A DNA stretch of 32,186 bases from Perkinsus olseni (lineage: Eukaryota). A program made the position numbers and the translations under genes. The stretch lies in contig JABANN010000404.1 in assembly GCA_013115125.1 (NCBI GenBank), forward strand, positions 1-32,186. Direction: 5' to 3'. Below are positions 430 through 24,348 of the stretch, in pieces; the first letter of the stretch is position 1, and each line of letters opens with the position of its first letter. Under the pieces are notes generated by a model that had not been told where the DNA came from, ran no database searches, and was given only the letters and a program-made list of their open reading frames with translations.

Positions 430-3400
430 CTATACGTAGCCTACCTCGTTGCTTGACTTCTGCGACTCAACCTCAGCCCTCGCAACATTGAGCATTCTCT
501 CCAGCTGAGGACCACCGCCGCTAGAGGCGCTCGGAGTCGCCGAAGACTCCCCGGCAGCAGCAACCGGAGGAGGAGAGGGAGATCCGATAGAAGCTCGACC
601 CTGGAGAGGGAGAAAACATAAAGATTCACAGCGGAGCGAAGCACAATTTCCCACCTTATACAGTTTTATTTTGTCAAGCAATGATTGCTTCTCGACGCTC
701 CAACTGCGCCGCTCATCAGCAAACTTCGAAGATTCCTGACACCAGCAGCAGCTTGCATGCGGACATACCAACTTTTCCGTAACAATTCTCACCTCCTCCA
801 GCCGCTTGATCGATTCCTTCGAGGAGCTCAAGGTGGAGCTCTGCTCCTCATACGCAGATCGGTAAAACACAAGACTGAGGGCGGCAGCGCAAAGATACTC
901 TGCGCACAGCCAAGATTTCGCCCTACTTGTTCTTCAATTCTTCCATCTCGCGAAGGACCTTTTCTGTCTGCTCTCTCGCCATCTCCCGCGCGCTTTGAGT
1001 CTCCTCAGAAACTCCTAGCAATCGAGCCACCCAGGTTCGAGCCCCACATGTCGCATGTTTACTCTTACTCTGTTGTGTTTCCACCAACAGACTTGCGATC
1101 TTGGCCTTCTCCCCCAATACAGCCTGCAGCTGCTCACTGAACTGAAAGTGGGATATATCATTAGACTCGACCCTTTTTGTATCTTTCCCGCTCAACCTCA
1201 AGATACTTACAACTTCAACTCGAGCTTGAGCACTGTGCATCTTCTCCAACGCTTCCGACTTTTCTCGCAGCGCTATCGATCGTTCGTGCACGACCTGAGA
1301 GGAATCTTAGGTCAATGCGAGGCGAATACAGGAAGCTCTTACCGTTTTCACAGTGCCTTCCAAGGTGGCATTCTGCGCCGCTAAAGATGCGCTTCTCTTC
1401 TCAGTCGTTCTTGCATCGTCCTCAACCCTCTTCAAGGACGCCCGCAGCTCCGACATGGCCTCGGAAATGACCGACTGAATCACGCGATTTGCGAAAGGAG
1501 TGGTACGAGGCCCCCATCTCCCATGCCCACCTTTCTATCCTTCTCAAGTTGCAGCATCGTCTTCAGCCTTATGCTCTCGGTACTCAACTTCCTATTCTCC
1601 TCCCTCAGCGAGGCAGACTCTTGTCGTATCAGGTCCAACTCTGAAGATGGCCAGTCGCTATTACTAGGTGACAGAATGGTTGTTGAAGGCTCATGAAAAT
1701 AATTAATAATCCAGGCTGTTCATTCGCTTGGACGAGCAGAATGCGTCGGAGTTGAGTGTTAGTGGAGCGGTATCTTTGAGCTTAGATGGTATAACAGAGG
1801 TTAACCTAGCGACAGCCAGAATGCAAGATTCCCATCCCTACGTTTCTGTGATTCGGTCTTCACCGTCTCCAACTTGTCTTGGAGTAAACTGATCTTTCTC
1901 TCAGCACTCGACGACCCTCGTGAGGGCGAACTACCAGAGCCCGCTCCAGCATCCCCCGTACCTGGAGGATATCCTTAGGTCTACCATGCAAGATACGGAA
2001 TAGGTTGGACTGCTAACACTTACCATCAGCCTGTGTTGCTGCTGAAGCGGTGTCCTGTAGTGACTTCCTCAACTCCTCAATCTGCTGCATCATCTCCTTC
2101 TTCTCCTTGTCAGCTCGAGAGAGAAGACCCTCGTACGTCGATCGATCGGTTTCTCGGGCCTTCGCTCTGAACAAACAGTAGCAACATCGTCACGCGCCAC
2201 GAAATTACTGATCCGAAGTCGGCGGAAAAGCACCCAAGGCTGCCCCAACAGAGGTCGAAACAGCACCCTATGCTGAGTTGATGATAATGCGGCTCAAAGC
2301 GAAGTACCCCTCCTCTGATGAGTATTCGAGGACGCGACGGCCATTAGCGCCCTCAAGCCACGAAGATGCCCGAAACGTCACGCGCCACGAAATTCACATC
2401 GTGAGCGCCGAGGGTGACGGCAAGTCGACGTGCAGAAGGATGCCCTGATGACCCTGCCAACTCACAACTCCTTGTATGCCTCATCCATCTTCTGCCAGTC
2501 CTCCCTCAGCTGTGCCAACTCCTTCTGGGCTTCAATCTCACACTCATTCCTCAGCCTCGCCACTGATGCCTTCAATGATGTATTCTGTGATACCTGCAGC
2601 AGCAGCAGCCCAGCTGCATCCTCAAGCGGTCCATCAACAGCAGGTGCGGGATCCTACCAACTCTGCGACTGTCATGAAGGATGGTGTGGACCCCTCCGCC
2701 GGCGTGGCCCCTTCAATCGAGGACGACGATATCGATGATCTGAGAACAATGACAATGGCCTCGGCTAGCGCCCGCGAAAACACCTAAGATATTCCCTTCT
2801 TCTCAAATATTTGATAAACAAGGCTCCATTTTTACGCACTACATGCGCCACAACGGAGCATCAGCCTTGCCACGATGACCGGCGATCAGTACCCAATTTC
2901 CCACCACTTCCACCAGATATCACTACCTCGTACCCAATACGCCCACCGAGCTCGCCCTTCCCTGCCGGTGTTACCTTCGTCTCTTCTTCCCACCGCCCCC
3001 CTTCAACAGCTCCACCTCGTGCAGCAGCACCGACGTCTGGTTAACCTGCTCCTGTAGTTGGAGCCTTAGACTGGACACACTGGCCTCCATCTGCCGTCGA
3101 GTATGGGACTCGCTATTCAACCTATCATGACATGCTACTTGGATGAGCCTCGAACTTGGAGCTCCCCGAGTAGATGAGCCAAGGAAAGCCTCATACCACA
3201 CCATCCCGAACTTATCTTACTTTTCCTTGGTCTCCCTCAATCGTGCGTTACCAATTTCTATCTTCTCATCTGAAACATGACAACAACTCGACCTGTACTA
3301 GCTCGAGGTCGAAGATACTCCCTCCACGCGATGCTAATACATACAGGGAAGAAATGAGAATCTTACTTGCATACTGGAGCTTCACAATAAGGTCATCATT

Positions 3401-6400
3401 TTGACGTTGTACGGCGTCAATCTCAGGCGCCTTGGCTTCAACGTACCCATTGACCTCATCAAGGAGATCTTCCAAATGTCTGACCATATCCAAGGTCGAC
3501 GCGTGCAAGATACGAAGCAGGTCAAGAAGGATGCCTTACGCATTAGCCTTCCTAAGGTCTGTAGTCTCATTTCTAGCTGCCATCAATGCATCAACCAACG
3601 CCGAGAGAGGAAAGCCTCCCTGTGGAGCTGAAAATGAAATCTCCATTTCACCCACGACATCCGATAAGAAATCCGGATCGAGATGGCTGATAAACGACGT
3701 GACCAGAAGACGGCATCTTCAATACTCTCAACCCCAACCTAATGCTCAGCCGAGACGCCTCACCTTCCACTCCGAGAACCTCAGCAGCAACATCCGTTAC
3801 GGATCGCCGTCGCCCGCCCTCCGTAGGAGTATTGGCAGCAATCTACCATACACGTACGTCAATACAACCTCACTCGTATCCTGCACGCTCCGACCTTCTC
3901 TCTAAGATACTTTTCCTTCTCGTCTTTCAATTCATCTCTCTCCTTCATCAATGCCGCCCTCTCCTTCTCAACCGTTTCAGCCTTCCCTCGCGCAACAGAC
4001 AGCGAGCACAACGTCTAAAAGATACGCCCCTCCGAAAGGTCTACCTAACCTAGCCGCGAGTATCTTTACTACATTATTCAACTCCTGCTTGGTCTCAGCA
4101 AGCTCCCCGCTCTGCGTCTTCAGCTGCTCCTCGAGATTGGACACCATTTGCTGCTTCAAACTAACGATGCCCTCCAAGCTGGATTTCTCAGTCGCTCCGT
4201 TCTCTCTCGCCGAGGCCAAATCTTTCACCGTATCTTCCAACCTGTGCAAGCCTAGCATCAACCTCAGCTTCCTCAATTATACTACTTCCTCTCAGCGTTC
4301 TCATGCAGCTTGGTCAAGCGACGGCACTCTGCCTCAGCATTTTCAAGGCGGCTCTTCAATCCCGACAGTTGGGTGTTGTGGTCCAACCTGATGCAGCAAC
4401 CTCCCTACAGCTAGCCCTTCTCCAACTAACCACACGCCCCGCCTCCTATCGCTACTGCAGTGGTCACTGAGACGTTATTAAAAATACTGCTGTGTCTGGA
4501 GGTGCGAGTATTGGAAATATTATATTTCCATCCGGGAATACCACACTGCAGCAGATTGAATACCATTCCAGGTGCGCAGTACCGCAGTTTAACCAATTCT
4601 CGCCAGAGCAGCTTCCACAGCCTCCGTAAGCGGTCGAAGTCCCATCTACGCCCCTTGGACGTCCTTCAAGAACTTCAAGTTGCGGTATCGCGCACATCCA
4701 CAGAAACGAACACTACCGAACACTACCGACCTCGCATCAATCTAATGTACCTCTCCAAGACGCTTGCGTACTTAACTACGATCAGACCTTCGAAACAGAG
4801 ATCACCATACAACACCAAAAGGTGATCTACACCCTAGATTGTAAGGCCGCGAAAAAATCGCCGACCGATCCCCCTATCCCTGGGTCTACTCTCGACCGGC
4901 CCATCACGGCGTCACACTATTCCACCACAGCAGCACACACAAGCCAATTGCCCCTCGCCCAGTATGACCTCGTTTTCTGCATTTCAGTAACGGTCCTCTC
5001 CTTATCAGTAGTAGCATGCTCAACCAGTTGCCACAACTCCTCCACCTTCGACCCCAACCTCTTCGTCTCAGCTTGCAACGATTGATTATCAAATTCTAGC
5101 GGACGTAGTCGACCTACACACCCCGTGAACTTCCTATAAAGCTAGCGGAGCGATGCTCCTGTCATTACTATTTGCGTCGGACAGTTGACACTGTAGAGAC
5201 AGCTTCTCGGACTGCAACTCCCCCAGCTGGCGTGTCAATACCATCAACTCTCGTGTTAGCCGAGACACCCTACACAGCAGGATGAAGCAGAGATCATTCG
5301 AGGCAGCAATCAACCGTGCAATACGAGAAGCAACAACAGACGCAGCTGCCGGGAGGGCTCATCAAACATTCAAGGCGCCATCTAAGCCGAGATAGCGGCA
5401 CCCTGCCCCCCCCAATCAAGACTGGTGTAGAGAACCGCCCTCTCCCGGGTACTACTCAGCCGTTGATCCATCTGCCCTATCAGTAGTGTCCACAGACTGC
5501 TGCTGCTGGTCACTGTCCGACTCAGTGATCCCCAGCGATGATGATGGCGCAGCTTCGGCGGCAGCAGGCGTGGCCTGATAACCCTGTTTCCCCATGATGG
5601 ACCAAATAACAACACTCCTACCCGCTCTTCAGAAGTGTTATCCTCGCTAGAACCCTCATTTACGTTTCCTCCCTCCGGCGATGTCTACAGCATCATCATC
5701 ATGCTAATACACATACCACACCATCATTACCTCAGCCGCTGCTGCTGCCGCTGCCTTGTCCGTGGGTGTCTCCACATGAGCGACCTCCTCTTCCTGTTGC
5801 TCGTGCCTTCCACTCTGCAGCATTGACCATGTACTACTACCACCTTACACCAGTATGGCGTACATCGTCCAGTTCAGCGTCCATTAGATCATCAAACATC
5901 GCCATCTCCTCATCTTCCTCGTCAGCAGCAGCAGCAGCAGCCGTATGAGCTGTCGGACGAGCGGCTAGGAAGCAAACGAATAGAGGCAGTAGCACTATAG
6001 ACTAAGCGCACTACGGAGATTCTCATTTCCTCTGGCCGGGCATCAAGCGTTAGTCAGAATCGATTTACCTCCGCAATACCCCAGCATCATGCCGAGAAGA
6101 CTAGTAGTAAGCATACCAGTGATGAGCTTCTGACAATCAGTACAGCCACCCGCACTACCATGCTGGTAGTCTTCTGCAGTGGAGCTGCTGTTGTTGCCCT
6201 CCTCTACAGTAACGGCCGCTACTCCCGACTGTTGTTGTTGTTGCTGGTCACCTGACACAACGGCCGTTCACTTATAGTATACAGTGACACGCGGCAAAAA
6301 AGAAGACAAAAACTGTCACCAGGTAGCCGGTGCTACGATATTCGAGACTTCAAAATTGCGCAAAAACGAAAAAAGCCACTGGGCCCCACACATGGACTTT

Positions 6401-6665
6401 CCCGAAGCCTGAAAAGACCTTCGCAACATGAAGGCTCTCTTCAACTGGCGGCCCAATGCTAGTGTGCGGGTATCGAGGGAAAGCGGGACGACGCACAAGA
6501 CCCCTCACCATCGTTATCCTCAAAGGTGTCCGCCCCTGCTGCTGCTGCTGCTGCTGCTGGTTGTTGTTGTGTGGTATCATTCTCATCACTGGTGCTGAGA
6601 TGGACCGATCCCTCGCTGTCCGATACGACGCCAGGAGGTGCGTCGGACGGTGATGATGATGACAT
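430..6665 (-). CDS. Large multi-exon coiled-coil protein (gene span including introns; ends approximate, could be two genes)
   Basis: Many short E/K/Q/L-rich heptad-like exons on the - strand (e.g. SLKQQMVSNLEEQLKTQSGELAETKQELNN, ERSIALREKSEALEKMHSAQARVE, DNQSLQAETKRLGSKVEELWQL) separated by short GT-AG introns. Low-complexity S/A/D N-terminal exon starts at ATG 6665. Confidence 0.6.
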
Positions 6666-6946
6666 CGAGTAACGAAGGACGACCTGCCGGCCCTGGCAAG
6701 GTCATTGGAGTACTTTTCAACTCAAGGCACTAGTAGTACGGATGGTAACGTTAATGATAGATAGAGTTTGATAAGTAGTGATGATATAATTTGTAAAAAA
6801 ACATACGAATCTTGGCGGAGCGATGCTTTCATGGCAGAGGTCCCCGGTTCGATCCCACCACATCACAATATTACATTTTGATCACCGTCTCTGATTTACT
6901 CGACTCTACGGAAGAACGACGATCCGAGACGGCGAACTCTACTAGT

Positions 6947-8185
6947 ATGACGTGTGCATCTTCTATTCTAACAATCGTCATCTACCAAGCGTTGATGGAC
7001 GCCCACTGTGAAGGGGCCGTATCACCGACAGCCTTGCCGCCTGAGCACTCCGAAGACGGTGGTCTCAACCTACCCATCGACAAAGGGTACGTCACGATTA
7101 CTATAGACAATCAGGATCTGCATCTCCTGCTCGACACCGCTTCGCCCCATCTCATAGTGATGGACGGCCATTGGCATGAGAGTAAGTTCGGCGTGGAGAC
7201 CTGCAAGGCATCTGCCAATGCTGGCTGCTTCTACTGCCCCAAGGACGACCCCTGCGACTTCGAGAAGGAGCCCAATGTCTACCGAACAGTGTATTACGAT
7301 GGCCTGGCCGTTGACAGCATCATACGCTATGGTTCCTTGACCCTTGGAGGCCATAAAGTTGATGCGTTCCCCTTTCGTGTATCGAGACTGGTTTTATCAG
7401 CATCAACTGCCAGCAGCCCTCCCCGGTTGAAAGGCTTCTTCGGTGTCTCTGGTCTTCCGCCTACCTCCACGTCCTTCAGCTGGGATCGTGATGTAAGAAG
7501 CCTCCTCGACGCCCTCGTGCATTCGAGCGCTATAACTCGACCTGTGTACTCTATCCGAGCCCATTCACAAGCATGTGTAGGGTCGATGCTCATCACTGGT
7601 GACTTCATGCTTGGTGACACGAATGAGAATGCATTGATGGCATCAAAAGCACGCGGCTCCTTCCACTTCGTCGCTGACAAGGAGTACCACGAAGCGCTCC
7701 CTACTGTGCAAATATCGTCGCTAAGGTTATCAGGTGCAGATGGTTTCCTACGCGAGTATCCGGTGTCTTTAACGTCCCCTCTGGACACTGGCTCCACCGC
7801 CCTTTTCCTTCCCATCCCAAGCATCCTGAACGACATTGCCGAAGCACTGAGTCGGAATCTCAGAAGGAGAGGATACTTCGACCACGAGATCTTGGAAACT
7901 TTTGAAATAACGGACAGGGGCACGCTTGGCGTCTACGGGGCTGTTGTTGACTACCTCCCTGTGCTGAGCTTTGACCTCGGTGATCACAAAAGGAGCATGC
8001 GCGTTCAGCTCCACCCGAGGGAGTATTGCCACTGCTCGCTCGCGTATTGCCGAGTCGCGATAAGGGTGAGTAATTCTACTAGCCTCGGGTCGCCGCTTTT
8101 CCGGGCCTTCAACGTACATGTCGACTATGACGATCGTGAGATATCTTTAACCAGCAAGGAACAGAACAGAAACGAACATCTCTAA
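6947..8185 (+). CDS. Pepsin-like (A1) aspartic protease, intronless, probably secreted
   Basis: Two catalytic motifs LLLDTASPHLIV and PLDTGSTALFLP, flap-like YYDG, GFFG motif, C-terminal LGSPLFRAFNVHVDYDDREISL. First ATG at 6947 is followed by a hydrophobic leader. Confidence 0.88.
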   Translation: MTCASSILTIVIYQALMDAHCEGAVSPTALPPEHSEDGGLNLPIDKGYVTITIDNQDLHLLLDTASPHLIVMDGHWHESKFGVETCKASANAGCFYCPKDDPCDFEKEPNVYRTVYYDGLAVDSIIRYGSLTLGGHKVDAFPFRVSRLVLSASTASSPPRLKGFFGVSGLPPTSTSFSWDRDVRSLLDALVHSSAITRPVYSIRAHSQACVGSMLITGDFMLGDTNENALMASKARGSFHFVADKEYHEALPTVQISSLRLSGADGFLREYPVSLTSPLDTGSTALFLPIPSILNDIAEALSRNLRRRGYFDHEILETFEITDRGTLGVYGAVVDYLPVLSFDLGDHKRSMRVQLHPREYCHCSLAYCRVAIRVSNSTSLGSPLFRAFNVHVDYDDREISLTSKEQNRNEHL

Positions 8186-8329
8186 TAAAGATCATGTTTA
8201 TTTTACGATGTTGTTTGGTGTCCATGGCCCGCGGCCAGTGAGGCGCGTTAGTAGTGTCCAAATGCCCAAGACGAGACAGGTTGCTTCGAGAGCTGCAGCA
8301 GTAGCAGCACCCGGAGGGCGTCACGAAGA

Positions 8330-9080
8330 TGTATGTCCCCTCATACCCTATCACAGAAAGCTGTGCAGTTCAGAACACCAAGCGCATCATGACGCTCAGA
8401 GACAGGCCCGACGAGCTTCACAGGAGAACCTAGCCAGCAGTGGGCATTCTGCTCCGGTGGTCAATAGGGCGCGGGGAGGCACTGGCGGCTGACTCCTTGG
8501 CGATATCGGGCTACAGGGAGAGAAATTCTCTCAGAGAATACTGAAGTGTCCCGACTCCTGTCCACCGGATTTGGAGCATCGAGGGTCACTCAGTCAGTCG
8601 AAACGACTCAGCAGCTCTGGCAGTAGCGGCAGCGACTGCGTTGCCTAGCTTGACTCTTCGCAAGCTGGCTGTAAGAAGGACCTTTTCTCCAGCTTCGACT
8701 GCTAGCTACAGCACCAAGATACACTCGTCAAGACGACCCTCCTCGGGAACCCCCGCTTCAAGGGTTACAACCTGCGAACAGCGGACTATAGTGATGGATG
8801 AATGTAATAGAGCTTGGTCCAATGATACATTTGTGTCCGTGCTCATCCTTCGGAACGCTGCTCGTAACCTAGCGTCTTCCCAACTGTCATGAGACGCAAC
8901 TCCACCACCAGCTTACGATACACTTTCAATGGTTGCCAATTCTATTTTACCGTCAGTCGAGGATACGATTCAGCTCGGGACAATGTCACGCCACAAGAAG
9001 CGGAAGTTATGGTACACCAGGGCATCATCATCATCATCGGCCGCCGCCGCCGTTGCACAGCTGCCGTGCACTACCATCAT
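8330..9080 (-). CDS. Hypothetical multi-exon protein (structure uncertain)
   Basis: ATG at 9080 (MMVVHGSCATAAAADDDDAL) followed by short exons bounded by GT/AG (IELATIESVS/WEDARLRAAFRRMSTDTN/VVTLEAGVPEE). No family recognised. Confidence 0.35.
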
Positions 9081-9137
9081 GATGATGACGCAGTAACAGC
9101 GTGAATGTTATGAATGCATAAGGGATGATGAGCCTTA

Positions 9138-12100
9138 TTATCTGGCCATCCTTGGAGGCGTACCGGACCGTGGCTGAGGGCCTACCAACAGGAGAAACAC
9201 CTACACTATCATAATAATCATACGCCTCTCACCTAGGCTGCCGTCCCCTCCTGCCATGCCTGGCCCCCCCTCGCTGCCAACAACAGCAGGGCCCGTTGAG
9301 GACCTCATGATCGTGCTGCTGGCACTATGCTGATGATGGTGGGGATGGTGACCATGGCCAGCGCCTTGGTGCGGCCCATGATGGCCACCACCAGCTGCTG
9401 CATGGGAGCCGCCTCTCATGCCGGTCGACGCTTGCACTGCATCAGTCGACTCCAGGACTAGATCTCGGAAAGAGCCGTCCACCGATCGCTTGATGTCCCC
9501 AAAGGTCGCCAGCACACAATCGGCACCGTCCTGACACAAGCAGCGCTACGCAGTTATCGGAAGGATCTTCTACCCCACCTTGCTGCCTAGCGTGATGGTC
9601 TCATGCAAGGTGCCCACGTCTGCTTTGGCCAGGCCATCCAGAACGTGGTGGAGGTTGTTGGCGACCTGCAAGGATCATAAGCCCTGGTAAGAGAGACTGG
9701 ACTCACCATGCTGGCTGGAGGAGAGGTTCCCGGTACCACTTGCCCGAAGAGGTACTCCATGAACATATTAACCTAACAACTCGGACAAGTGCGAAGTGCA
9801 GGGGGCCTCGACTCACCAGTTGTCTTTCGTCCATTTGCTGCGCGTTCATATTTTTAGCCCAGCTCGGCCGCTCCGCTACGTTGGCTCCCAGAGTATTAGG
9901 CCTGGGACAGATCTTGCTCCGAGAACCCAGCAGATTTCGAGTTTGAGATCCGCTGGGGATTCTCAAACCTAGTGAGTTTCGCACAACCATTTTTTTACGG
10001 AATAACGTCGGGTCTGGGATTCGAACCGGAGACTCTCGCGTGTAGTGAATATTTCATCATCTCAATCAACGGCTTCGCTGTGCAAATTCTGCCACTTCGT
10101 CATGAAGGCCTAGTTTCAAATCTCCACGCGAATCCTACTGAAGCGCCCTATTCCCGCCTACCGTTTATTATCCCCGTTGCTGGACTGGGCGCTTCGACTG
10201 GCGTTCCGATCCAGCGCTGAAGCATCAGTGGACGGGACAGAATTCTGATGGTAGGATTTAGAAGGCGGGCTACTACTGGAGTTCATGGGGTAGCAGTAAG
10301 CAATGGTACCTAGAAGTCACATCTTGCTTCCTTACACATTCTTGCATTTCCTCCACGTGTGCTCACATAGTTTGATCAATAATTTCAGCATCCTCGAGTT
10401 GTCCACCTCCAGTTTAAATTCGTTCAAGAGCATGTCAGTCGTGAACAGAGAGCTTTCGAACTGAATCAGATTCACGAAGGTGGACTATGCCCGGCAAAAC
10501 GATGAGTTCACCTTGTTAACAATATGGTTGCAGTACTTGAAGGCGAGCTGCTCTGAGGTGGGGTAGTTGGACAGGTCCTTGACTTGGGTCAGGAGAATTT
10601 GGGCCAGTGATTTCAGATCATCCGAGTAGCTCGGGTTCGCCATGAATCCCGCTCCATTGGAGGCGTCCATCTCCTCGGGAATTTTCAGAGCATTGTCACT
10701 GCGCCCTGAAATTCACCAAAGAGCAGTCCGGTACGATTGCCGTCATCCAATGGCGGCTCACCGGTTGCCATGGACAGGATGAGCCTCCCTAAACATATCA
10801 GGTCCTTCTGCTGTTGATGGGCGATCGAGCTCTGCTGCTGCTGCTGGTGTGGTTGGGACATCGGGGCTGGGCCAGTCCGTGATGACCCAGCCCAGGCCGT
10901 TTGCGGTGCCAAGCCGGTTCGAGAGGGGGGCTGAGGGGTGCAGCAGAATCAGAAGAACGGTCGCGTGTGTGTGAGTTTTAAGTCCAATGCCGATAAGCCA
11001 GCAACGACGAGTTCAGTGGTGCGTTATGCAGTAAGCCCGGATGCTGCTGCCACTACGAGCGAACGAACGTTGCAGTGAAAAGCTTACGGATTCCTGTGCC
11101 AAGGCATCCAATAGGCCAACGCAGTTCAAGTATACCCTGGGTGGATAGAGGAAGGCGGTGTCGGTGACCAGAATCTGAACAACGCGAGAATTGCCCCCGC
11201 CAAGACGCAGGAGGTAATACGGTCACCTTAGTTGGATGAATAACCTTCGCAGAGAGTCCGTGGCTGTGGATATACTTGAGACACATGATCAGTTGACTCA
11301 ACACGTCCTGCAACGCAAAAGTACTCTTCCAATGTGGCGCGACGGTATCATTCGCAGCCAGCAGCCCCAAGACCCCGGTTCGACCCTACCACCCTCACCC
11401 ATATAACATGCTCAGGTATCCCCCCAGTCCCGTTCTGTTTAAGCGTAGGAGAGTCTATGAACACTGACTGCAATGTTGCCACCGAGGGTATATAATCATA
11501 CACGTACACCTATCAACACTCATGATGATGAGCTCCTAACCCTCCCGGCGACTCCTCACCAGGGACCCTCCGTCCTGACTCGGATTCTCAGCCTCGATGA
11601 AGTCCCTCGTCCCGAAGGCTTGTCGCAATGGTACTATGCACGGATGATGCTGAATAATAACGGAATCCAGTATTATCAAACGCTGCAGCCTGCTGTTGAT
11701 GATGGCAGTCTTACTATGGCACTCCACGTCCTCACAGCTTCAGTGACCAAGTCGAAGTTACTCAGGCTAAACCCATCAACTCGGCATAGACAATAGACAT
11801 AGGAGTCCTACAGACAGGATGAGGGCTGGTCGGGGTAGCATGATCGAGTAGATGAGGGGCGGCGAGCATACACGAACAACCCCGGGGGTGGCGAAGGGAT
11901 GTTATACGAGAGCCAAGGCAGATAATTCTAAGAGCTAGATTCGTGACGTTATCAGTAATAATACGATCGCTACGAGGTGCTCAGCGTGCGGTACGACCGC
12001 TACTAATACAGCCCGGTCGATGAAAGCTCGACAGTGTCTAAATGCCGTGCAGCAACTTGTGATAAGTTACCCATACCAAACGCTCGGGCGTTCGAAAAAG

Positions 12101-13733
12101 CAGAGAAGCAGTCCCGCGGCACCACCCTCTTACCGCCACCGAAAGGGCCTTGTAGAAGTACGTCTTGTATTGGTACCCGAAATAAGATCCGTTACCAACA
12201 CTACCACTGCTACCGCTGCTGCTGCCCTTCGTCTGCTGTCCATCACTCGAGGCGGCGGCAGGCACGGCATCCCGAGTACCGCCCCCTCCCTCGGGCAGTG
12301 ACAGGAGTGTATGATACTTATTCTGGACGAACTCGGGGACTACAGAGAGACAACAGCAACCAGGAAATCCACTCCACCTACGGTCAGGCCTAGCAGCTAC
12401 ACACCGTCAACCCAGCACTTCTATGTGATGCGAGCCTTCGAGTAACGCCAAAATCCGACCGAGCAGTACAAGGGTGCCATCACCAGTTTGCGAGGCGAAA
12501 GACTCTGCTCCCGGAATTTTCATATATTTTTCCAAGAGTCACCCAGGCGCGTGCCGGGTCCCCCCACGAGATGCCCTACCAGCCGGCATGTTAGAGTCGA
12601 CAGGATAGTCCCTGTTCGAGAGTACGGTGTTTACCCGATGCATCTGCAGCTCCTTCCGAATGGTCTGAGAACACCAGCAAAAATGATGCAAAAGAATAAT
12701 CGCTTCGCTCCGCCTACAGGGTCAGCACTCAAGGAGGTTGCGTGTGGTGGGGGTCGCTCTAACATGTAGGGCGGCAGCGGCGCCGGCTTTTCCACCGGCG
12801 GGATGGGAGACCTCGGCATCCTGTTCGGAGGCCTCACGCCTCTTCCAACTGCTGATGATGGTAATACGAAGGGAGGGGCACCAGAAGAGGAGGAAGAGGA
12901 GGGTGGAGGAGGACGGTTAGGGGAACTGAAGGGGATGAGATATACAGAGGCATCTAACCTCCCACGTATCTTGCTATGTTCAACCTAAGATACGGCGAGT
13001 GCACGCTCCTTCCGCTCAAGATGGTGCAGCGAGACTTCGCAGGGAGAGTGCGTTGAATAAGATACCCCTAGCGAAATGAATTTAACTCAGATCAATCCCT
13101 TGCACAGCCGTGAGAGTCAGGGCCACTGAACTCATCACGAAACCGGGAAGATCCTCGAAAAACGAGGAAACCTTCTCACGGATACAAGTCCGAGCTGTCC
13201 TCGCCCCACGACATGAGCATTGCTCGGCGACCGCGCGTCGCGGAATTCCTCCGTTCCCCCAGTCCATGAACAGTACGCTACTACAACGAGGCTTGAGTCT
13301 GCCCGAGAATGCCCAGAAGGTGTTATACCATCTCTCCCCCTCCCTGAGTACCTTCCCGTAGTCTTCTGTGGTGAATCCATCGGCTGCTGCTGCTGCTGCT
13401 GAGAACTCTGTGGCGTCGTCGCATCTCCTGCTCCCATCACGGCAGCATTCCTCACACTACAACCACTACCAGCCGCTGTACTCTGCGCAGGCCTGTGGCG
13501 AGGAGCAAGTATTACCCCAAGGGCTGCTGATACCCTCCTTACTTTGATGATACCTTGGGTACGGCTGGTGGAGGCCCGGGAGGGGGAGGGGGCGGAGGGG
13601 GCATCCCCGGTGGTGGTCCCCAGACTGATGATGCCAGACCCGTAGTTGAGGGCGGCGGCGGCGGCGGCGGACCCCAGCAGGGCCCACGCGAAGGCGGCTG
13701 CTTGGATAGTGGGGGTGGGGAACCTGAGATCAC
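9138..13733 (-). CDS. PAN3: PAN2-PAN3 deadenylase subunit PAN3 (pseudokinase plus C-terminal domain), multi-exon; 5' end uncertain
   Basis: Spliced exons give PAN3 motifs in the expected order: IRKELQMHR; KYHTLLSL; YFYKALSVA/DSYVYCLCRVDGF; HPCIVPLRQAFGTRDF; QLIMCLKYIHSHGLSAKVIHPTKILVT; QQKDLICLGRLILSMA; YSDDLKSL; EVDNSRMLKLLIKL; MFMEYLFGQV; HHVLDGLAKADVG; DGADCVLATFGDIKRSVDGSFRDL. Pro-rich N-terminus. Stop TAA at 9138-9140. Confidence 0.85.
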
Positions 13734-14039
13734 TGCTCATTCCCTCAACCGTGAAAAGAGTCGTGCAGCAGATTTCCTGTCGCCCCACACGTAGAGTTAC
13801 TACTGCCCTCAAGATCAATCAACAAGAAGCCCTAGTGCGTTTTCCCCACTATCCATACTGTTGCCCGCTAATCCCCCTCAGATGACGAAGGGGCCCTCAG
13901 TTGTCTTGAGCCTCAGAGAGAACCATCACTGATGGTCGTGTAAGTGTTCAAAACGACCACGATTTAGTTACTATCCTCATGGGATTCTTAACTCTGCCCG
14001 ACCGGTCATGAGGCTCTCCCATGAATCCGAGCGAACCCC

Positions 14040-15141
14040 TCACTCACTTGCAGCCTTCTCAAGTGCACTACTGCTTGGAGGCAACCTAAGATACTCAAAG
14101 ATACTCCCAAGGCCGCCCCTAGGTAACCTATCGGTACTCAGGGAATGCTGATCGGGAGAGCGGAGATAGAGCCCTTCGTGCGTAGTCCGGCGGTGGTGAC
14201 GCTGCTGCAGCCGGAACGGCGGGGGTGGCAGGCTGCTGACAGGAGGCAGCCGCTCGAGGCCCTCTGGGTTCGCGGATGCCATTACATCACGATCTCTCGG
14301 CCTGGTGAGGACAGTCTTCGGTCTGGCTGCTGCTGTTGAGGCCCCACCACTGCTGCTACCACCTAGAGTTGCGGAAGTTGTGGTATCATGTTGGGAAGAA
14401 CGCGTGATGATACCACTGCTCTTCCTCCGTCTCGTGGCTCCCGAGGAGGCTGCTTGCTTGTGGGTGACGGCACTCGTCTGATTGCCGCCGTTGGTGTGGC
14501 CCGACCGGCCGGAGATAGATCGATTAGGTGAATGATGGGCGTAGGTACAGGAGTCCCCAAACTCACTGAGCAAGATATCCAAGGTCGAAGCTTGCAAGAT
14601 ACGGAATAGGTCGAGTCCCGTTACTACCATTTTCCTAAATATGTCCAATTCCGGCAAGGTGCCACCCCTGAAGTGTCATTGTTGTTATTATTGTTCTCTC
14701 TTCGACTCATTAAAGACTAAGATACCTCTGAAGTCGACGGGTGAACTACTGGAGAAGAGGGCGAGCTCCTTACCTTTGAGATTGATACAATTATAATGAT
14801 ACTGATGTGGCAACCTCTGATGCTGCTGGCTACAACAAGTGCAACGGAGAGCCGCAACAAACGCTGAACGAGGAACCTCTGATTTCGTGGCGAGAGACAC
14901 TCTACCCGCGTAATTGATTGATAACTGTGAACGCAACTGTCGGAGAGAATCTTATCAACCTATTCTGAATCTTCCAACTCAACCTGCAGGATGCGCTCAG
15001 ACGTATTTCACGGACCGGCGGACACAGCAAGATCAAAATGGCGAACGCGCACCAAAATCGTAGCGGAGCGATGCAGTGCCGACAACGATAGAGAAATGTA
15101 GAGATATCCCGACTGTTGTTGCGCAACTCGTTGTTGGCCAT
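14040..15141 (-). CDS. Hypothetical low-complexity S/T/G/R-rich exons (separate gene or 5' extension of PAN3)
   Basis: Long open frame 14040-14657 containing a GT-AG intron near 14567-14627, with further open segments up to ATG 15141. Confidence 0.35.
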
Positions 15142-15454
15142 TGATGAATGATGACAGAGTAGTTGCGTGGAGCAACCAAAACAAAGTGTTTAGTTGTTCA
15201 GAAGAGTCCTCGGCCCTCACGTCTAGTACGGCGCCTAAAGTCGATTCTGAGTTCCAGTATCAGTTGACGGAACAACTCCGAGTTATATTATCACGGAGAG
15301 CTTCAACTTATACCATGTCTTCATCCAGGCGTCCCTCTTCCACACACGTCCCGCCACTTCGCCTTGTGGTTCTCTGTTTTTCCCTATTTGCCATCAATCT
15401 ATCGGTTTTGTTGAGTATGTTGTGAATGGGCGAGTAGTAGCCTCTGACTTTACC

Positions 15455-18400
15455 ATGACCGGTGGAGGCGGGGCGGGTGCAGGGGCGGCCGTTTACGCCT
15501 CTGAGAATGAGCAAGTACTCTATGCCAGAGATGTTAGAGTCAGGATAAGGCCGCAGGAGAGGGAAGAGTAATCCCGACCTTCTCTAGTATCTTCACGCTC
15601 AACCTCCAAGATACTTCATCTCGGCGTCGGTATTAGTTTCCACACTAGAGCGGTCGTTGACGTCACCCGACGTTTGGATCACCAACTGGACTACTGTTCC
15701 TCACTCGACTAACCAGGAGGTCTCCGGATCAATCCCTGGCTTGGACAGGTACTCCGCCAATCTCACGTTGAAGCTTTCCCTACAGACAGCGAGCAGCTCT
15801 TCCAGTTCTGGCAGTGGAACACGAGCAGCTGTCTCGTCCAGCGGCGCTCTGATGATCACTATTACGGACGGTCGGGACCCATTCTTCCTGTAGTGGCGTG
15901 TTGTAGTGCAATTTGGGAAAGGTGTGGTATGGAAGGTATACGTTATCCCTTGCTGAGACCGACTACCACACCCTCAAGACAGAGCAGAGGTTACTAGTGG
16001 ACTTCCAGAATTTTCCCAAGATGATAACGGAGCTCGTCGCGGAATGCGTAGGTTCATGGAGAGTTATCAATTTCTGTGCTCCCTTCAATCGCCACGAACA
16101 TAACCATATGGACCCTTCCTGCATTCGTTACTCCGGATTAGGCCCATAACGGCGGCAGCCCACCAGCAGGAGGTCAGAATATGTCCGTCTACCTGACAGT
16201 CGGCGAGTCAACTGTTGAATCGACGCTCAGCATTATAGAGGCTAATCAGTTCAGAGAGATCACACATTTGTGCTTGAGGATGCGGAAAGGTAGTGAGTCT
16301 ATCAGAACCCCGTCTCGGTTGGCTGAGGGTCTCTCCGTTGTTGAAGATCGGCTCGGAAAGGCTAGGACTTCACACGGATCTGCTTAACTGAGTGGGAGCG
16401 GATATCACGCTATTTCTAGTCGCGACATCTCTCAGGCACGGACGAAGTGTTGAAGCACTATTTGGCGTCTAAGTTGAGTCACTTCCAGCAGCTGTCTGAG
16501 AGGCTCGAGGAGACATTGTGCAACACAGAGAAGGAATTAAGGTAGGCTCAATCATGCATAAGGGGTTTGAAGGAGGACGATGGTCAGACGGGTGGCGGCG
16601 GAGCGACAGTCCCAAGCGGAGGAGATAAACTTGATGAAGGTCGGTAGCTGGCCTCCCTCTTTCTCGCGGGTGTTGATCGTCGGGTCCTGTAGCTCAGTGG
16701 TTAGAGCGACGGTCTTATGAGCCGTAGGTCGTGGGTTCGACCACCGCCGGGACTACATAAGATTGCCATTTCTTGCAGGCGGAACGATGTCAACTGGAAC
16801 AGAGCATGAAGGCTGGTCACGAGAGAGAGCTAGCCGAGCTTAGCGAGCGCCATGCTCGAGAGATCCGGGATAATCATCATACGTAGCATCATCGCGAACG
16901 CAGTTCAACAACAGAGTCCTACTGATTTCTGTTAGACTCACTGCTGAGCGGGACAATGCAGTTAAGGAACTAACAGCTCAGCTTGAGGCCGCCCAGGCAG
17001 CTGCAGAGTCATCAGCGAAAGCAGCTACCGAGGCTCAGCATAGGGTGAACAGAAGTGCCTGGTGCTCTACTTGGACCCGGGGTGTCCTGCAGGTTGTAGC
17101 ACTTGAGAACTCTCTATCGAGTTCGAGCAGAAAATTGGAAGCTGCCTTGAAGGAGTTGGAAGAGGACAAGGAACGGTACGGATCGACGAGCGCTGAAGTG
17201 AAAAGGCTCGAAAAAGAGAAGTAGTGCTGGCGCTTATCGACGCCCCCATTAAAAGACTCCGCTCATCAGCTACATTTTGGAGAAGCAGTTGTCCGAGGCA
17301 GGGGTATCTTTAGCGCTCTGCAAGGAGCAGCTAGCGGCCAAGGAGGAACTCGCCAGTAGTACCCGGGACTACCCTCGGGATCGGTAGCAGCTGACGCCGA
17401 TTCCACTGCTCGTGAACGAACGCTGCCGGGTATCCTTTAATATAATCTCGCCGTCGCCGCGTTGGGCTGCCGGGCATCCAAGCTGTGTCGTTCCAGTTTG
17501 AGTGTCTGGGCGCAGATAAGTCGAAGGAATTGCTGGAGCAAGCGAATCAGCAGAAGTCCTCACTCGAGGAGCAGATACAGATGTGTGTTGGAGGCGTGCC
17601 GGTAGCGGGACTCGAACCGGGGACCTTCTCGTTGACAGGTATCGGACGAGTCTCGCTCAACTAGAAGAGAAGTTGAGTGTGAGCTTCAAAGAGACTACGA
17701 AGGGCAATGAAGTGATCAAGAAACTGCAGGATCAGATAAAAGCATACAAGTCCAGAGTGAAGGGGTTGAAGCAAGTAATGAAGGCATCAGCCGAGCCGAG
17801 GACTCCCTCGGGAGTCCCGAGTCGGGACCAATGGTGGGGTCCATACTCCATCAGCTCATGCCAGTGCATGTGGTGCTTGCTGTATGACACCGTACAGCAC
17901 AACGGTGTGGCTTTCGAGATTTTTGTCGGCGTTCATCTTGATGCTCTTCTCCAGCCTGCCTCTGATGGAAGTTAATTTGGTGAGCGACGCCTTTTGCCTG
18001 TAGGCAATGCAGACACACGAGGAGACGATCCATGAGCTCGATCATCGTCTACTCGAGGAGCAACGGTCTCATGATGACAGCAAGCTCGAGCACAAGCGTA
18101 CTGTTTGCTGCTCATCATCAGTTATCTTCATCAGCCTTGTAGGTGCCCTAGACGCCTTGGACAGAGCCCAAGAGGACTGCGAGGCGACGAGGGGGAAGTT
18201 GGCAGAAGCACATAAACTACTTGAGTCGAACGAGCAAGTCATCTCCTACCTCAATAAGCGGCTGACTGATCGAGATGTTAAAGTAGCTCTGGCATCTCTG
18301 TGGCCCGTTGGCTGGATCAATGCCATCAGGTCCTATCAGGAGTGGAGCCCTCAACGTCGTCATCTGCTTCCGGGTACTCAGCCTTGAGTCTGCCAATACT

Positions 18401-18936
18401 ACCATCACACAGACAGCATCCAACGCAAGCCTCTGCCCTCGGTGCCGCTGCAGCTTCAACGAGTCATCATCACTCGGGGACTAGTAGCAGCAGGAGCCAC
18501 TCTCCGAGCACTTCGAGGCCAGTTGGAGGAGGAGTCCTGGCCAACAGGACCAATGGTACGCTGTAAACGACGTCTCTTGTCTCTAGCACTGCCTCAGTTT
18601 TCGAAGGGAGCAGCGGAGCGATGCAGCTAGCTAACGTTGGTCGGCAGCCAGCACCACCTTACCAGAGTGGCCAGAGGTTGGCCTCGGGCTTCACTATACC
18701 TGGGGGACCATCGGCTAAGAGGCCCAACTTGGAGGAGATATCAGCGATTGGTGGGTTCGTCACGGGACGCCTTCGTCGTAGTAGTGACTAGGACAGCGGG
18801 TCGTCGTGTAGGTCATCATCAAGGGACGAGAATGGAGAACCAGCCTCCGTCTTCAGCTACTACCATCACGCCCTCCTCTTCCGCCCTTCAGAGCAGGCTA
18901 GCGGCGGGGCCTGTACGATTCTTGCCCAAATCTTGA
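15455..18936 (+). CDS. SAS6: Centriolar/basal body cartwheel protein SAS-6, multi-exon
   Basis: Spliced N-terminal head domain: ITDGRDPFFL/YTLSLAETDYHTLKTEQRLLVDFQNFPKMITELV, IIEANQFREITHLCLRMRKG/TDEVLKHYLASKL. Followed by coiled coil (KGNEVIKKLQ, SNEQVISYLNKRL) and a low-complexity tail. First intron 15568-15748. Confidence 0.92.
16683..16755 (+). tRNA. tRNA-Ile (anticodon TAT), intronless, inside a SAS-6 intron; possibly a pseudo-tRNA
   Basis: 73 nt cloverleaf: acceptor GGTCCTG/CGGGACT+A, D arm GCTC/GAGC, anticodon stem ACGGT/GCCGT with loop CTTATGA, T loop TTCGACC. Position 53:61 is G:A instead of G:C. Confidence 0.85.
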
Positions 18937-20550: not shown

Positions 20551-21164
20551 TTATTCGTCATCCTCACTTTCGTCATCTCTGGCCTCGCTTACCGTCCAGC
20601 TACTCGTCTTCCGGAGGACTTCGAATTGACTGCAGACCTTGGTATAGAAGTCAGGGAATATACTGGGAGCGTTCATAGCCACGTGGAGCTGCTGAACAGC
20701 GTCGTAACAGTACGTCGCGGTTATACGGTATGTGCCCAGCGGGTTAGCTCTGCTGCCGACAGCGGGGAAGTTTCGGCTGAAGAGAAAATGTCGCGCGATG
20801 ACGTTTGGTTGGCGTGCCCGAGCCTTACTTGTAGTATGAATGTGTTGGGCAGTCGATCGATCTCGTAACAATCGATTGACTGTCTTGATCGATTTTGAAG
20901 CGCCAAAACAACTCACCTTGACGAAGGGGGAAGTAGCCATGCTTGTCGTCATAAGCCACTTCACATGTTTTCTGAATTGTGGTCACTGTGACGTCTTCCA
21001 TCTGACAGGACAAGTCGTGCCATCACAGCATCTCTGCTCATGGTCAAATGTGCTACTACATCTAGTGGACCACTAGCCTTGTGTGGGGTCGCGCCCTTTG
21101 ACGTACGCAGGGCAGAGGCAGTGAAGGCGCAGACTGCTAGAAGTACAGGGGAGAGAATTGTCAT
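20551..21164 (-). pseudogene. Secreted Cys-containing family, copy 1, with +1 frameshift near 21023
   Basis: Signal peptide MTILSPVLLAVCAFTASA. The homologous body (SCQME...CEVAY...WRFKID...IDCPTHSYY) is in a different frame. Intron 20777-20828, acidic tail. Confidence 0.7.
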
Positions 21165-23219
21165 AGCTTACGGTGCGAGCTGGGGAGTGCGGGAAATTGG
21201 GCGTTGCTTGAGACGAGCGTCGCGTAAGAGCGCGCCCGAGACAGGATTATCCGGCTCCAGCGGGAGAGAGTAGATGGGCAGAGAAGCACGAAAGCTTCTT
21301 CAGTGCAGGTGGCGAGACTATCAGAGAGATTACGCTATAGGCTGTGCAGCGTAATCTTCATAACATTTCAAGGTGGCGAGACTATCCCGGCAACATCAAA
21401 TCGAGTTACAGAAGCCAGTCGAACCGGCGTCAGTCGCTACATTGTTTCTTCGCCGCGAAAATGCTTCTAGGCGTTACCCTAATACCTCAGCATGCCTCAC
21501 AGTTGAGGCATGCTAATGGCTCTCTTGTCCGCGAACATGAAAGCTTGAATACGTTGCGTTCTTTTTGGTTTTTCTGGTGAGTCTCACAGCTGTATGTGTG
21601 ATAACTCACGGGGAGCAGTCACTGGGCACCGGCTCACGGCGGGCAAGCTGGTACGGAGTCATCATCCAGAGTATGTATGGGGAGGTCCTGCAGACTCTGG
21701 ATTCGCATGTCATACAATAAGTTATTGCCGGTAAACAGCGATGGCTCATAAGTGAGGCTGCACACAGCCCTGCATCCGGGATAGAGTACTGAACAGAAGC
21801 GGTAGAAAGCAGTGATTACGACAGCCCATTCGTTGCCCCTGCGACAATACCCGCAGTCACCACTGATGCACCAAGTAACTTAAGGGTGTAGGAAGACGAA
21901 ACTGCCGCCGCTGGTACGATTCAGTACGGCCGCATGATTAGTGTTTTTGAGGCAGGCAGGCCGGACGCGGGTGCTCGCTCTGCGATTATTCCAGGCGTGG
22001 GTCCTGAAGACACCACGCCTGACTCACTCGCATACGCCGTACACGCGTCCACCAGCGGGACATCCGACGTTTAGAGCCAATCGAAGAGGAGTATTATCGA
22101 CACTCAACGCTGTGAGGTATGGCAAGGTGTAAGTAGCAGTTCTTACTAGAGAAGGAACCCCGATAAGTGGCGCACAGTCAGATTGAGTCAATCATTGGCT
22201 TAAATTAACCGGGATTGGTTGACGGTTTTTCGGTAGCTACAGCGGCCTCTGCAGGGAGTAACTTGGCTGGAGAGGACGAGTCCAACAAGGTCAACGATCC
22301 GCTGAGAGAGTTTAACACCCGCAATGAAGGTGAATGTAGTAGCATGCCAGCACACCCGAACGTGCATAGTACGAGGCGAGTTTTGGCCGCTGAGCTGCTG
22401 AACTTGAGGGGTGCTCAACGACCACAATAGACGCGCCTTGCACGGTAGGTCATCAACGATGCGTAATCTGCCGAGCAAAACTGGTGGTTCGGATCATCAG
22501 AACCTGATGGTCCGAGACGATGTTGTGCAGCTGCAACGGAAGCTAGCGGAAATCATAGCGCACGCGTAGTTGCGCTATTGCGACGCGGCAAGATAGCAAG
22601 TGGAACAAGAAGCCGCCGTGACATGGGAAAAATCGAAAGTGGGATAGTTCTCGAAATATTGCACGTTGAGAACCCGTTTTAAATGATATATCAACAGAGG
22701 TGAACAAGTGCCACTGAATGGTGCAACTTTAAACGAAGTTCAACGGTTTAAAATGAATATCAAAAAAACGCAACACCCCTTCTGAGACTGATAGGTTTTC
22801 GCTGGCGCTCTGCTGATTTTTATCGCTCGCCCGGCGGGGCCCTCCCCACTCCGGCTCGCGGATCGTCCGATCCCCATGGGGGAGGTTCCACCCAGGAATG
22901 GCTCAGACCTCAATGTCAACTCCACTAGGGGGGCATGTGACAGTCATCAACGGAGGAATGTTTCGCTGGTTCAACAACAGGATGATGGGGTTATCTATTC
23001 ATGCCGGACGAGTTACTCGTGTTGCGGTTCGAGATTGCCTCTTATGACGCAAGTGCTCGTCCATAACATGATCGCGGCTAAGAGTCTCAAGGCCTTAAAA
23101 TAACGCCGATGCCCCGAAGCACGGCGGTGGTGAATGGTCCGAAGTCCTGAACAAGCCACCAGTAGCAGTCGGTCGCACACGATCTCCTTCTATTGGGCGC
23201 CTCAACAATGCCTCATGTA

Positions 23220-23708
23220 AAGGGTGTTTCAAAACCTCGTGAGCACTTTTGAGTACGCGTAAGTCAGTGTCCTGCAAGAGTTTCGGGTGAATTTTTGTGT
23301 GGCTTATGGCCAGTGTCCTCCTCAAGCGGCAAGGCGAATCTCGTCGATTTACGTGGCTGGCGACGAAAGACATGGCCAATCAACGCGCTCTCGGAGGTGG
23401 CTGGCTCAGACGACTTTCGATTCGCTCAGCCACTGTTTCTCAGCGCACTGAGTTGCAAAGTGTCATGCCATTTCGGCCCTCCCATCGGCATTTCGGCTCT
23501 GAGTTAATCGAAAGTCGTCTGAGCCAGCCACCTCCGAGAGCGCGTTGAATGGTCATATCTTCCGTCGCCAGCCACGTAAATCGACGAAATCCGGCATGCC
23601 GATTGGTGGGGATGTTGGCCATAATACCCAAAAAATTTGATTCGAAACTCTCACAGGGCACCGACTTGCACGTACCCAAAATTGCTCACGAGGTTTTGAA
23701 ACACCTTT
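23220..23708. mobile_element. Foldback/MITE-like element, ~210 bp inverted arms, flanked by TA
   Basis: TA|AAGGGTGTTTCAAAACCTCGTGAGC ... GCTCACGAGGTTTTGAAACACCTTT|TA. Arms ~23220-23429 and ~23499-23708, ~70 bp spacer, no transposase ORF. Confidence 0.8.
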
Positions 23709-23767
23709 TACAGGAGCAACAACAACAACAGCTGGAGAGTGGTACGCCGCGAGTGACGGACTACATA

Positions 23768-24348
23768 TCAGTCTTCGTCACTCTCGGCCTTGGTGATGCT
23801 CCATCTTGACGAGGCATGGCGGACGGTGCTGTCGAATTGACGGCAGATTCCCCCGTAAAAGCGAGAGAAGACGCTGGAAGCATTCATAGCTGCATGAAGC
23901 TCTTCAACAGCATCGTAGCATTTTTGCGATGCAATGTGATAGGAGCTCATAGGGTTGGTACGAGCCTCTATGCCGGGGAAGAGACGACTGAGAGAAAAGC
24001 ATGGCAGCCAAGATGCGATGAGGATACGTACTTGGTATAAGTATGCTTGGAACACTCGATAGTTTGCGTTATAATGGTTTTATCTTCTATCCCGAAGAAC
24101 CAATGCATTTCCCTTGCTCGGCAGGGGAAGGTCTCGCACTCAGCTTCGTAAGCCATCTCGCAAATGTCACCTAGTGTGTAAACTCTCACGTGTTCCATCT
24201 GACAAGAGAGGACATGACACTGTTGAAAGCTATGCTTCGGTACATCCAGTGGATCGCTTGTCTCATGAGGGGCTACACCCTTGGTGGTGCGGAGTGCAGA
24301 GGCAATGAAGGCACAGGACGCTAAGAAGACGGGGGAGAAGAACACCAT
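23768..24348 (-). CDS. Secreted Cys-containing family, copy 2 (intact, two exons)
   Basis: MVFFSPVFLASCAFIASA signal peptide. Intron 23988-24031 (phase 2). Ends ...CYDAVEELHAAM...FYGGICRQFD...KAESDED*. Confidence 0.8.

Follow-up and report, generated by a model that had tools for sequence, protein, structure and literature searches.

A four-block unit of about 42 bp in and beside introns of three Perkinsus olseni genes: a possible miniature introner-like family

A unit of about 42 bp recurs, in seven solid copies and one weak copy, within or next to the introns of three genes, namely a coiled-coil gene, PAN3 and SAS-6, on a single contig of Perkinsus olseni, a perkinsozoan clam parasite and as such a commercially important parasite of shellfish (NCBI GenBank assembly GCA_013115125.1, contig JABANN010000404.1, positions 1 to 32,186; "the window" below means this whole stretch of 32,186 nucleotides, which is the complete contig). 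Judged from their letters, the copies, which are numbered c1 to c8 and all come from this contig, are a homologous family by descent, beyond a mere shared motif. We favour, at a probability of roughly 0.5, the interpretation that they represent a miniature introner-like repeat, or one akin to miniature inverted-repeat transposable elements (MITEs), whose blocks have been kept because a protein recognises them. A working binding site on DNA or RNA is the main rival and a serious one.

The unit and its copies

Read in one orientation, the unit is composed of four blocks: RTATCYT, followed after 0–2 bases by AGGTYRA, after a further 5–7 bases by AAGATAC and after another 5–6 bases by AGGTYRR. Blocks one and three form an inverted repeat, and blocks two and four a direct repeat. 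Six of the copies had been described in a sequence-only reading of the window, whose coordinates and letters are correct throughout, each of the six having a GTATCTT, a gap of 14 bases and an inverted half-site; two additional copies were found, at 14953-14994 (c8) and, in a looser form, at 3862-3910 (c7). With these included, the distance between GTATCTT and AAGATAC is 14 in seven of the eight copies. In order of position, with E-values from a profile described below, the copies are:

c1, 1165..1206, minus strand: GTATCTT-G-AGGTTGA-N6-AAGATAC-N5-GGGTCGA; profile E 1.2e-8
c4, 1969..2010, plus strand: ATATCCT-T-AGGTCTA-N6-AAGATAC-N5-AGGTTGG; profile E 2.8e-10
c5, 3486..3527, plus strand: ATATCCA-AGGTCGA-N7-AAGATAC-N5-AGGTCAA; profile E 4.4e-9
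c7 (looser), 3862..3910, minus strand: GTATCTT-N7-AGGTCGG-N7-AGGATAC-N5-AGGTTGT; profile E 0.15, weak
c2, 12952..12993, minus strand: GTATCTT-AGGTTGA-N7-AAGATAC-N5-AGGTTAG; profile E 7e-8
c6, 14575..14616, plus strand: ATATCCA-AGGTCGA-N7-AAGATAC-N5-AGGTCGA; profile E 1.2e-10
c8 (degenerate), 14953..14994, minus strand: GCATCCT-GC-AGGTTGA-N5-AAGATTC-N5-AGGTTGA; profile E 2.4e-8, three mismatches
c3, 15572..15614, minus strand: GTATCTT-GG-AGGTTGA-N5-AAGATAC-N6-AGGTCGG; profile E 7.6e-7; nearest relative c1 (80%)

Pairwise identity among the copies is 59–83%. The closest pairs (c5/c6 at 83–85%, c1/c3 at 80%, c4/c6 at 77%) have spacer letters in common, for example TGC-AAGATAC-GGAAT, and c5 and c7 share a GCGTGC spacer; because close pairs agree in this way outside the blocks, the copies are taken to be related by descent. 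The sequence-only reading had proposed that spacer lengths are kept while spacer sequences vary; the spacers are, however, not free in sequence, given the letters shared by related copies.

Chance expectations were derived from shuffles of the window (100 for the pattern counts). The pattern GTATCTT-N{5,7}-TMRACCT-N{0,2}-WRGATAY has six matches in the window, exactly the six copies noted earlier, and none in 100 shuffles. A plain inverted-repeat pattern with up to three mismatches is matched eight times, against a shuffle mean of 0.84 (maximum 3), by the six copies, by a degenerate seventh (14967-14994, part of c8) and by a site at 21875 that is a probable chance match. A strict 37-nt pattern occurs four times, at four of the same six copies, a count reached by none of the 100 shuffles; elsewhere, it is found once in JGI metagenome contigs and once in 596 Gb of prokaryote genomes, with no match in IMG/VR viral contigs. 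The metagenome match lies in an unrelated, AT-rich contig with four GTATCTT where 1.73 are expected, and the prokaryote match in a metagenome-assembled genome of Fervidobacterium; both look like chance and are uninformative about Perkinsus.

GTATCTT by itself is present 22 times in the window, compared to an expectation of 2.69 (shuffle maximum 8), an approximately 8-fold excess, and 21 of these occurrences lie left of 16 kb, the exception being a lone block at 17304 that is probably coding. Fifteen of the 22 fall into the 5,991 nt of mapped introns, two into 6,127 nt of exons and five into the remaining 20,068 nt. If the blocks were the product of chance or base composition, about three GTATCTT would be expected, and the exonic ones at 3904 and 4230, as well as that at 17304, may be of this kind. 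For the full copies, such an origin is refuted by the shuffles, none of which reaches the observed counts, and by the rarity of the strict pattern in the outside collections compared to its four occurrences here, and we regard it as extremely improbable.

In a profile built from seven copies, those seven score between E 1e-10 and 8e-7, and c7 scores E 0.15; as the profile was made from the same seven copies, only the absence of further matches is informative. Apart from c1 to c8, it finds nothing in the window below E 0.5. The earlier statement that no copy is seen right of about 18 kb is borne out, since to the right of 15.6 kb the profile has no match with E below 1; all eight copies thus lie within 15.6 kb, and the other 16.5 kb are without any.

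Host introns and splice sites

Introns were mapped by exact and tolerant protein-to-genome alignment and compared with RNA contigs from four runs. The partial P. olseni protein of the coiled-coil gene (FOL46_006339) maps letter for letter on the minus strand, in 29 exons separated by 28 GT-AG introns. PAN3 was identified from a 98-residue exon translation that is 96% identical to P. olseni PAN3 and is also matched by the P. chesapeaki and P. marinus proteins. For SAS-6, matches to the SAS-6_N domain in the plus-strand open reading frames (ORFs) 15907-16149 and 16142-16387 establish both identity and strand; a protein search with the minus-strand ORF 15704-15973 gave no match. In total, 50 introns of 41–581 nt (5,991 nt altogether) were mapped in the two minus-strand genes, at least 13 of which, including 1142-1210, are confirmed by RNA contigs of the four runs. 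The dangling ends of the RNA contigs have no match anywhere in the window.

Within the coiled-coil gene, c1 is located in a 69-nt intron (1142-1210), in the same direction as its host; the donor, GTAAGT, lies 4 nt upstream of GTATCTT, and the joint 1141->1211 is found in all four RNA runs as well as in the exact protein map. Both c4 and c5 run opposite to the gene and fill short introns, of 62 nt (1962-2023, exact protein map) and 60 nt (3480-3539, protein maps), respectively; a P. chesapeaki protein continues uninterrupted across the site of c4. The weak copy c7 lies across an exon-intron border: intron 3843-3894 has its donor (GTCGGA) at the AG|GT of the copy's first AGGTYRR block, and the GTATCTT of this copy is in coding sequence (KYLREK) that is conserved in P. 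chesapeaki.

In PAN3, c2 has no short intron of its own and lies, in host direction, within the last 68 nt of a 426-nt intron (12926-13351), with the acceptor 26 nt past the mapped end of the unit (28 nt past the last AGGTYRR block); an RNA contig piece, 12718-12925, ends at this acceptor in three runs. The oppositely directed c6 fills a 62-nt intron (14566-14627) just past the first coding exon, as mapped with the N-terminus of P. chesapeaki PAN3. Between PAN3 and SAS-6, 243–284 nt upstream of the PAN3 start codon, is c8, and c3 lies in the 5' part of the plus-strand SAS-6 gene, opposite to its host. Each of the nine frame-keeping GT-AG solutions listed for c3 takes out either the whole unit or everything except its last 4 nt, and no RNA joint for it is among the joints listed.

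Accordingly, the claim of the sequence-only reading that its six copies all fall in predicted introns has RNA support, among the joints listed, for 1142-1210 and for the 3' end of the intron containing the copy at 12954; the other assignments rest on protein maps, with putative borders around c3. In the orientation used by that reading, its count of four sense and two antisense copies is correct once SAS-6 is placed on the plus strand. Related copies occur in both directions relative to their hosts: c1 is in the same direction and c3 in the opposite one, yet they are 80% alike, and c5 and c7 are likewise opposed. Subtracting the unit from the short host introns leaves 19–27 nt. Because this remainder is shorter than any mapped intron, the shortest of the 50 being 41 nt, the unit and the short host intron probably arose together.

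The sequence-only reading also held that the element is not a splice signal, and this is supported by real 5' and 3' sites that take up differing positions relative to the unit. The donor is 4 nt upstream of it in c1, inside it in c7, 6–15 nt from the reverse unit in c3 to c6 and more than 300 nt away in c2, while the acceptor is 21–28 nt beyond the unit in c1, c2 and c7 and 6–9 nt beyond it in c4 to c6. Eight copies are too few for defining classes of such geometry, which recalls the flexible usage reported for some Polarella glacialis classes.

Another candidate explanation is that GTATCTT / ATATCCT is a donor for the minor spliceosome. U12-type introns have the donor consensus RTATCCTT and a TCCTTAAC-like branch site 10–15 nt from the 3' end, and both ATATCCTT in c4 and GTATCTT bear a resemblance to the former. 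The mapped splice sites contradict this explanation, which is very improbable: for c1, whose intron is confirmed by RNA, the cut lies at GTAAGT, 4 nt upstream of the block, and for c7 at AAG|GTCGGA; the ATATCC ends are on the strand opposite to the host genes, and no TCCTTAAC-like branch site is present near the 3' ends of the mapped introns. Moreover, passages of the Amoebophrya paper (PMC7789003) report the minor spliceosome to be absent in other alveolates.

Alternatively, the element could act in RNA, where GUAUCUU, by itself or within a 7-bp hairpin (14-nt loop) of which it forms the 5' arm, would bind a splicing factor or shape splice-site choice. Lone GTATCTT blocks are biased to the sense strand (7 vs 2), and three introns end in GTATCTT(N0-2)AG or GTATCTTTTAG. 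Furthermore, the arm changes in c4 to c6 and c7 give G.U pairs in sense RNA and A.C mismatches in antisense RNA, with 45 of 49 pairing cells against 40 of 49. This pattern stems, however, from about three independent changes and also fits a transcription-linked A>G and C>T bias; no pair has changed on both sides, and pairing as good as that observed arises in 246 of 500 shuffles. Folding z-scores for six host introns on either strand range from -1.05 to +1.29, showing no excess stability, the predicted folds of c4 to c6 lack the hairpin, and the position of the block varies from intron to intron. A conserved RNA hairpin was thus rejected, with neither stability above shuffles nor compensatory changes, and we consider an RNA-level element in general to be quite unlikely.

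Two further candidate origins were rejected. The Perkinsus spliced-leader exon (PMC9399869), of which the copies might have been relics, has one match in the window at three mismatches, compared to 1.07 expected, and its local alignments to the eight copies have p = 0.08–0.92. For an origin from tRNA or a short interspersed nuclear element (SINE), Rfam has no match at the copies and reports no tRNA-like sequence at 6740-6920 or 12900-13400, and AGGTCGAGTCC resembles a T-arm only superficially.

Several observations on the host genes stand apart from the unit. At 5965-6158, RNA contigs of all four runs splice differently from the deposited protein model, which has an intron at 5965-6068 and additional coding sequence; the difference reflects either an alternative acceptor or an error in the annotation. 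Runs of CAG/CTG in coding exons of two genes (5922-5943, 6532-6559 and 13381-13402) give rise to false long joints in RNA contigs (5942->9334, 5943->13382), which are assembly chimeras and not splicing. A tRNA-Ile with anticodon TAT (16683-16756, plus strand; Rfam 57.6 bits, also called by ARAGORN) lies within the span of SAS-6, between the SAS-6_N and coiled-coil exons, and is probably nested in a SAS-6 intron. ARAGORN also calls an intron-bearing tRNA-Ala at 13174-13270 (minus strand), in the 426-nt PAN3 intron; Rfam has no match there even at E 10, and the call is probably false.

Mobile family or site kept in place

The sequence-only reading had offered a choice between a DNA-binding, recombinase or chromatin-organising site and the relic of a tiny intron-associated mobile element. 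The latter fits best, on account of the homology of the copies, their occurrence in both directions and in several genes, and their clustering; the hallmarks of a transposon, on the other hand, were not found. The mobile reading also gains from the location of the copies in introns, from the shortness of the host introns once the unit is subtracted, and from the shifting splice borders. We propose that the family would have multiplied as DNA, through transposition or some similar form of copying, and entered nearby genes in either direction. Copying at the level of DNA is suggested because relatives occur in both directions with respect to their hosts, whereas copying through RNA would give one direction only, and the confinement of the copies to 15.6 kb is compatible with local hopping. 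Insertions would persist only at sites from which they are spliced out by the spliceosome. The unit appears well suited for this, being rich in GT and AG (GTATCTT, AG|GTYRA twice and the AAG of AAGATAC), with two TYRAC motifs resembling branch sites on its reverse strand, and either direction may be spliceable by means of nearby sites; the splice borders would then vary because the unit is spliced out with whatever sites are at hand. The blocks and their fixed distance of 14 bp would be maintained since the copying protein recognises them in the source elements.

Under the same proposal, the lone GTATCTT blocks of other introns would be what is left of broken or decayed units. An exact GTATCTT is present in each of the partial copies that had been pointed out earlier near 3312, 4019-4065, 14088 and 14719, and the partial, rearranged and lone forms in the window are:

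875..926, minus strand: 52-nt RNA-confirmed intron with a lone sense GTATCTT (892-898), then CCGCCCT at N7
1295..1342, minus strand: half-unit; 48-nt intron with 3' part TTGACCT-AAGATTC-CTCTCAG
1641-1841: mapped intron of a minus-strand gene with a lone block
3270..3366, minus strand: partial copy; 97-nt intron in which GTATCTT runs into TCGACCT-N11-AGGTCGA
4015..4072, minus strand: partial or rearranged copy with palindromic blocks; 58-nt intron GTAGTA-AAGATAC-N8-AGGTTAG-GT-AGACCT-N11-GTATCTT-TTAG
14086..14137, minus strand: partial copy; PAN3 intron ending GTATCTT-TGA-GTATCTT-AG|GTTGCC, 5' border uncertain, with the acceptor inside the GTATCTT+AGGT pair
14719..14725, minus strand: lone GTATCTT with AG after it, situated 8 nt upstream of the PAN3 start codon; perhaps the last part of an intron in the 5' untranslated region, or else an outron acceptor

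A number of observations weigh against a mobile family. Inspection by eye of the flanks of the eight copies, a weak test, revealed neither terminal inverted repeats at the ends of unit or intron nor target-site duplications, and no transposase-like gene was detected among 43 ORFs of the window scanned against Pfam. The 7-bp inverted repeat is internal to the unit, and the heads and tails of the host introns differ between copies, leaving the unit without a fixed pair of splice sites. The sense bias of the lone GTATCTT blocks is not predicted for a pure DNA parasite. In addition, the inner AGGTYRA stands 0, 1 or 2 bases away from RTATCYT, and the spacer on its far side is shorter by the same number, preserving the total of 14; this looks like a constraint on geometry. 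Finally, conservation is concentrated in the blocks, the spacers being far less conserved; simple decay of inserts would not produce this pattern, and a constraint is therefore needed, acting either in source elements or in place.

A constraint acting in place would be imposed if the unit were a protein-binding module on DNA, with GTATCTT half-sites exactly 14 bp apart (21 bp centre to centre, or about two helical turns) and two AGGTYRA repeats bound by a regulator, chromatin organiser or recombinase and kept by selection. Conserved blocks with unconserved spacers, the gap of 14 in seven of eight copies with its compensated sliding, and the occurrence of both directions all agree with such a module, as does the cluster formed at the divergent PAN3/SAS-6 start region by the intron 14086-14137, c6, the block at 14719, c8 and c3. 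Another motif, GCGGAGCGAWGC, is also found in introns and intergenic sequence (6 occurrences vs 0.54 expected), and the sharing of short non-coding blocks may be general in this genome. However, the copies of the coiled-coil gene are 2.6–5.8 kb from the gene start and its first nine introns have none, the right 16.5 kb are without copies though genes are present, the shared spacer letters fit common descent better than convergent sites, and no binding factor is known. On balance, we consider the module unlikely, albeit with more in its favour than the other rivals have.

It is also conceivable, if doubtful, that the unit is a living recognition module constrained in its geometry, as opposed to a decaying relic, with two GTATCTT half-sites locked 14 bp apart and two AGGTYRA direct repeats. 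It could then be either the smallest known introner, making introns of 43–69 nt in both directions out of its own blocks rich in GT and AG, or a platform kept in introns for a sequence-specific, perhaps transposase-derived, protein.

The favoured interpretation as a miniature mobile family can be set against known systems, beginning with the introner-like elements of dinoflagellates (Symbiodinium, Polarella glacialis) as portrayed in parts of Roy et al. (bioRxiv 10.1101/2020.10.14.339549). These, too, are sequence-similar introns in unrelated genes, some classes of which insert in either direction, and they take their splice sites flexibly from the element, the flank or an AGG(H) duplication; splice sites are likewise unfixed here. 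The dinoflagellate elements described there differ in having inverted repeats that end at the 3' splice site and target duplications of 3–8 nt, neither of which was found here, whereas the P. olseni unit is only about 42 bp long, has an internal inverted repeat and blocks far more conserved than its spacers, and is known from eight copies in one contig.

The introner elements of Amoebophrya, as presented in sections of Farhat et al. 2021 (PMC7789003), similarly belong to an alveolate parasite and are repeated introns with inverted and direct repeat motifs, predicted stem-loops and no matching transposase. Their 8–20 nt inverted repeats join the intron ends, their direct repeats of 3–5 nt extend over the borders, and non-canonical introns are numerous among them. 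By contrast, all mapped P. olseni introns are GT-AG, and the 7-nt repeat, with its 14-nt gap, is internal and does not join the intron ends: its arms are at intron positions 5–11 and 26–32 of 69 in c1 and in mid-intron in c4 to c6, so that end pairing of the Amoebophrya type is not seen.

In fungi, the symmetrical sister (stw)introns of Hypoxylaceae (portions of Fekete et al. 2021, PMC8469720) are also proliferated, similar introns with internal symmetry and without flanking duplications; they differ in carrying terminal inverted repeats of 45–55 nt and nested introns. DNA transposition was excluded there for want of flanking short tandem duplications, according to the same portions of that paper, whereas in P. 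olseni the two directions relative to the hosts argue for copying of DNA.

MITEs are short, non-coding, multi-copy elements that occur in either direction and contain an inverted-repeat motif, and their recognition motifs may remain conserved between subfamilies whose interiors vary. They are defined by terminal inverted repeats and target-site duplications and are usually larger than 42 bp. The P. olseni unit is likewise short, non-coding and multi-copy, with an inverted-repeat motif and either direction of insertion; it differs in that no terminal inverted repeats or target-site duplications were observed and in its length of 42 bp, below the usual size.

Full-text literature searches found no repeated intron elements in Perkinsus, although the species tables in supplements of introner surveys (PMC9860276, PMC12130899) may list P. 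olseni. In the two papers found to name both Perkinsus and introners, Perkinsus is used for comparison only, and a full-text search for GTATCTT yielded primer lists only. Perkinsozoa are the sister group of dinoflagellates, in which introns made by transposons are rampant. On the basis of eight copies in one contig, it is plausible that the unit is a new, small variant of introner-like elements in a lineage for which none have been described. If the family extends genome-wide, introner-like intron turnover would be extended to Perkinsozoa with an unusually small unit, and a unit that works both ways without the usual transposon ends would bear on the origin of new introns and on the minimal sequence needed for it. 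If instead the blocks are conserved in place, they would represent a new intronic recognition element in a shellfish parasite. The four-block pattern can be used as a probe for a genome scan.

Other features of the contig

The six GCGGAGCGAWGC sites are located as follows:

631-642
5145-5156
6815-6826
12702-12713, minus strand
15063-15074
18613-18624

Mapped introns hold three of them, with both orientations to the host represented; the other three are in stretches without annotation, among them the spacer between PAN3 and SAS-6. At two sites, a block similar to GTATCTT (GAATCTT / AAGATTC) is 1–3 nt away.

Between two intron-rich genes lies an intron-less ORF of 462 codons (6797-8185, plus strand) that encodes an aspartyl protease domain of the pepsin type (E 2.2e-9); in three of the four runs it is nearly devoid of RNA cover. 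In the right part of the window, two linked repeat segments are present in three copies (20826-21085, 24029-24269 and 29379-29637), 62–79% alike and spaced by 3.2 and 5.35 kb, which could represent paralogous genes or else a dispersed repeat; the ORFs near them gave no Pfam match. The right half also contains a foldback-like element (23212-23716), a 218-nt inverted repeat whose arms are 84% complementary and separated by 69 nt.

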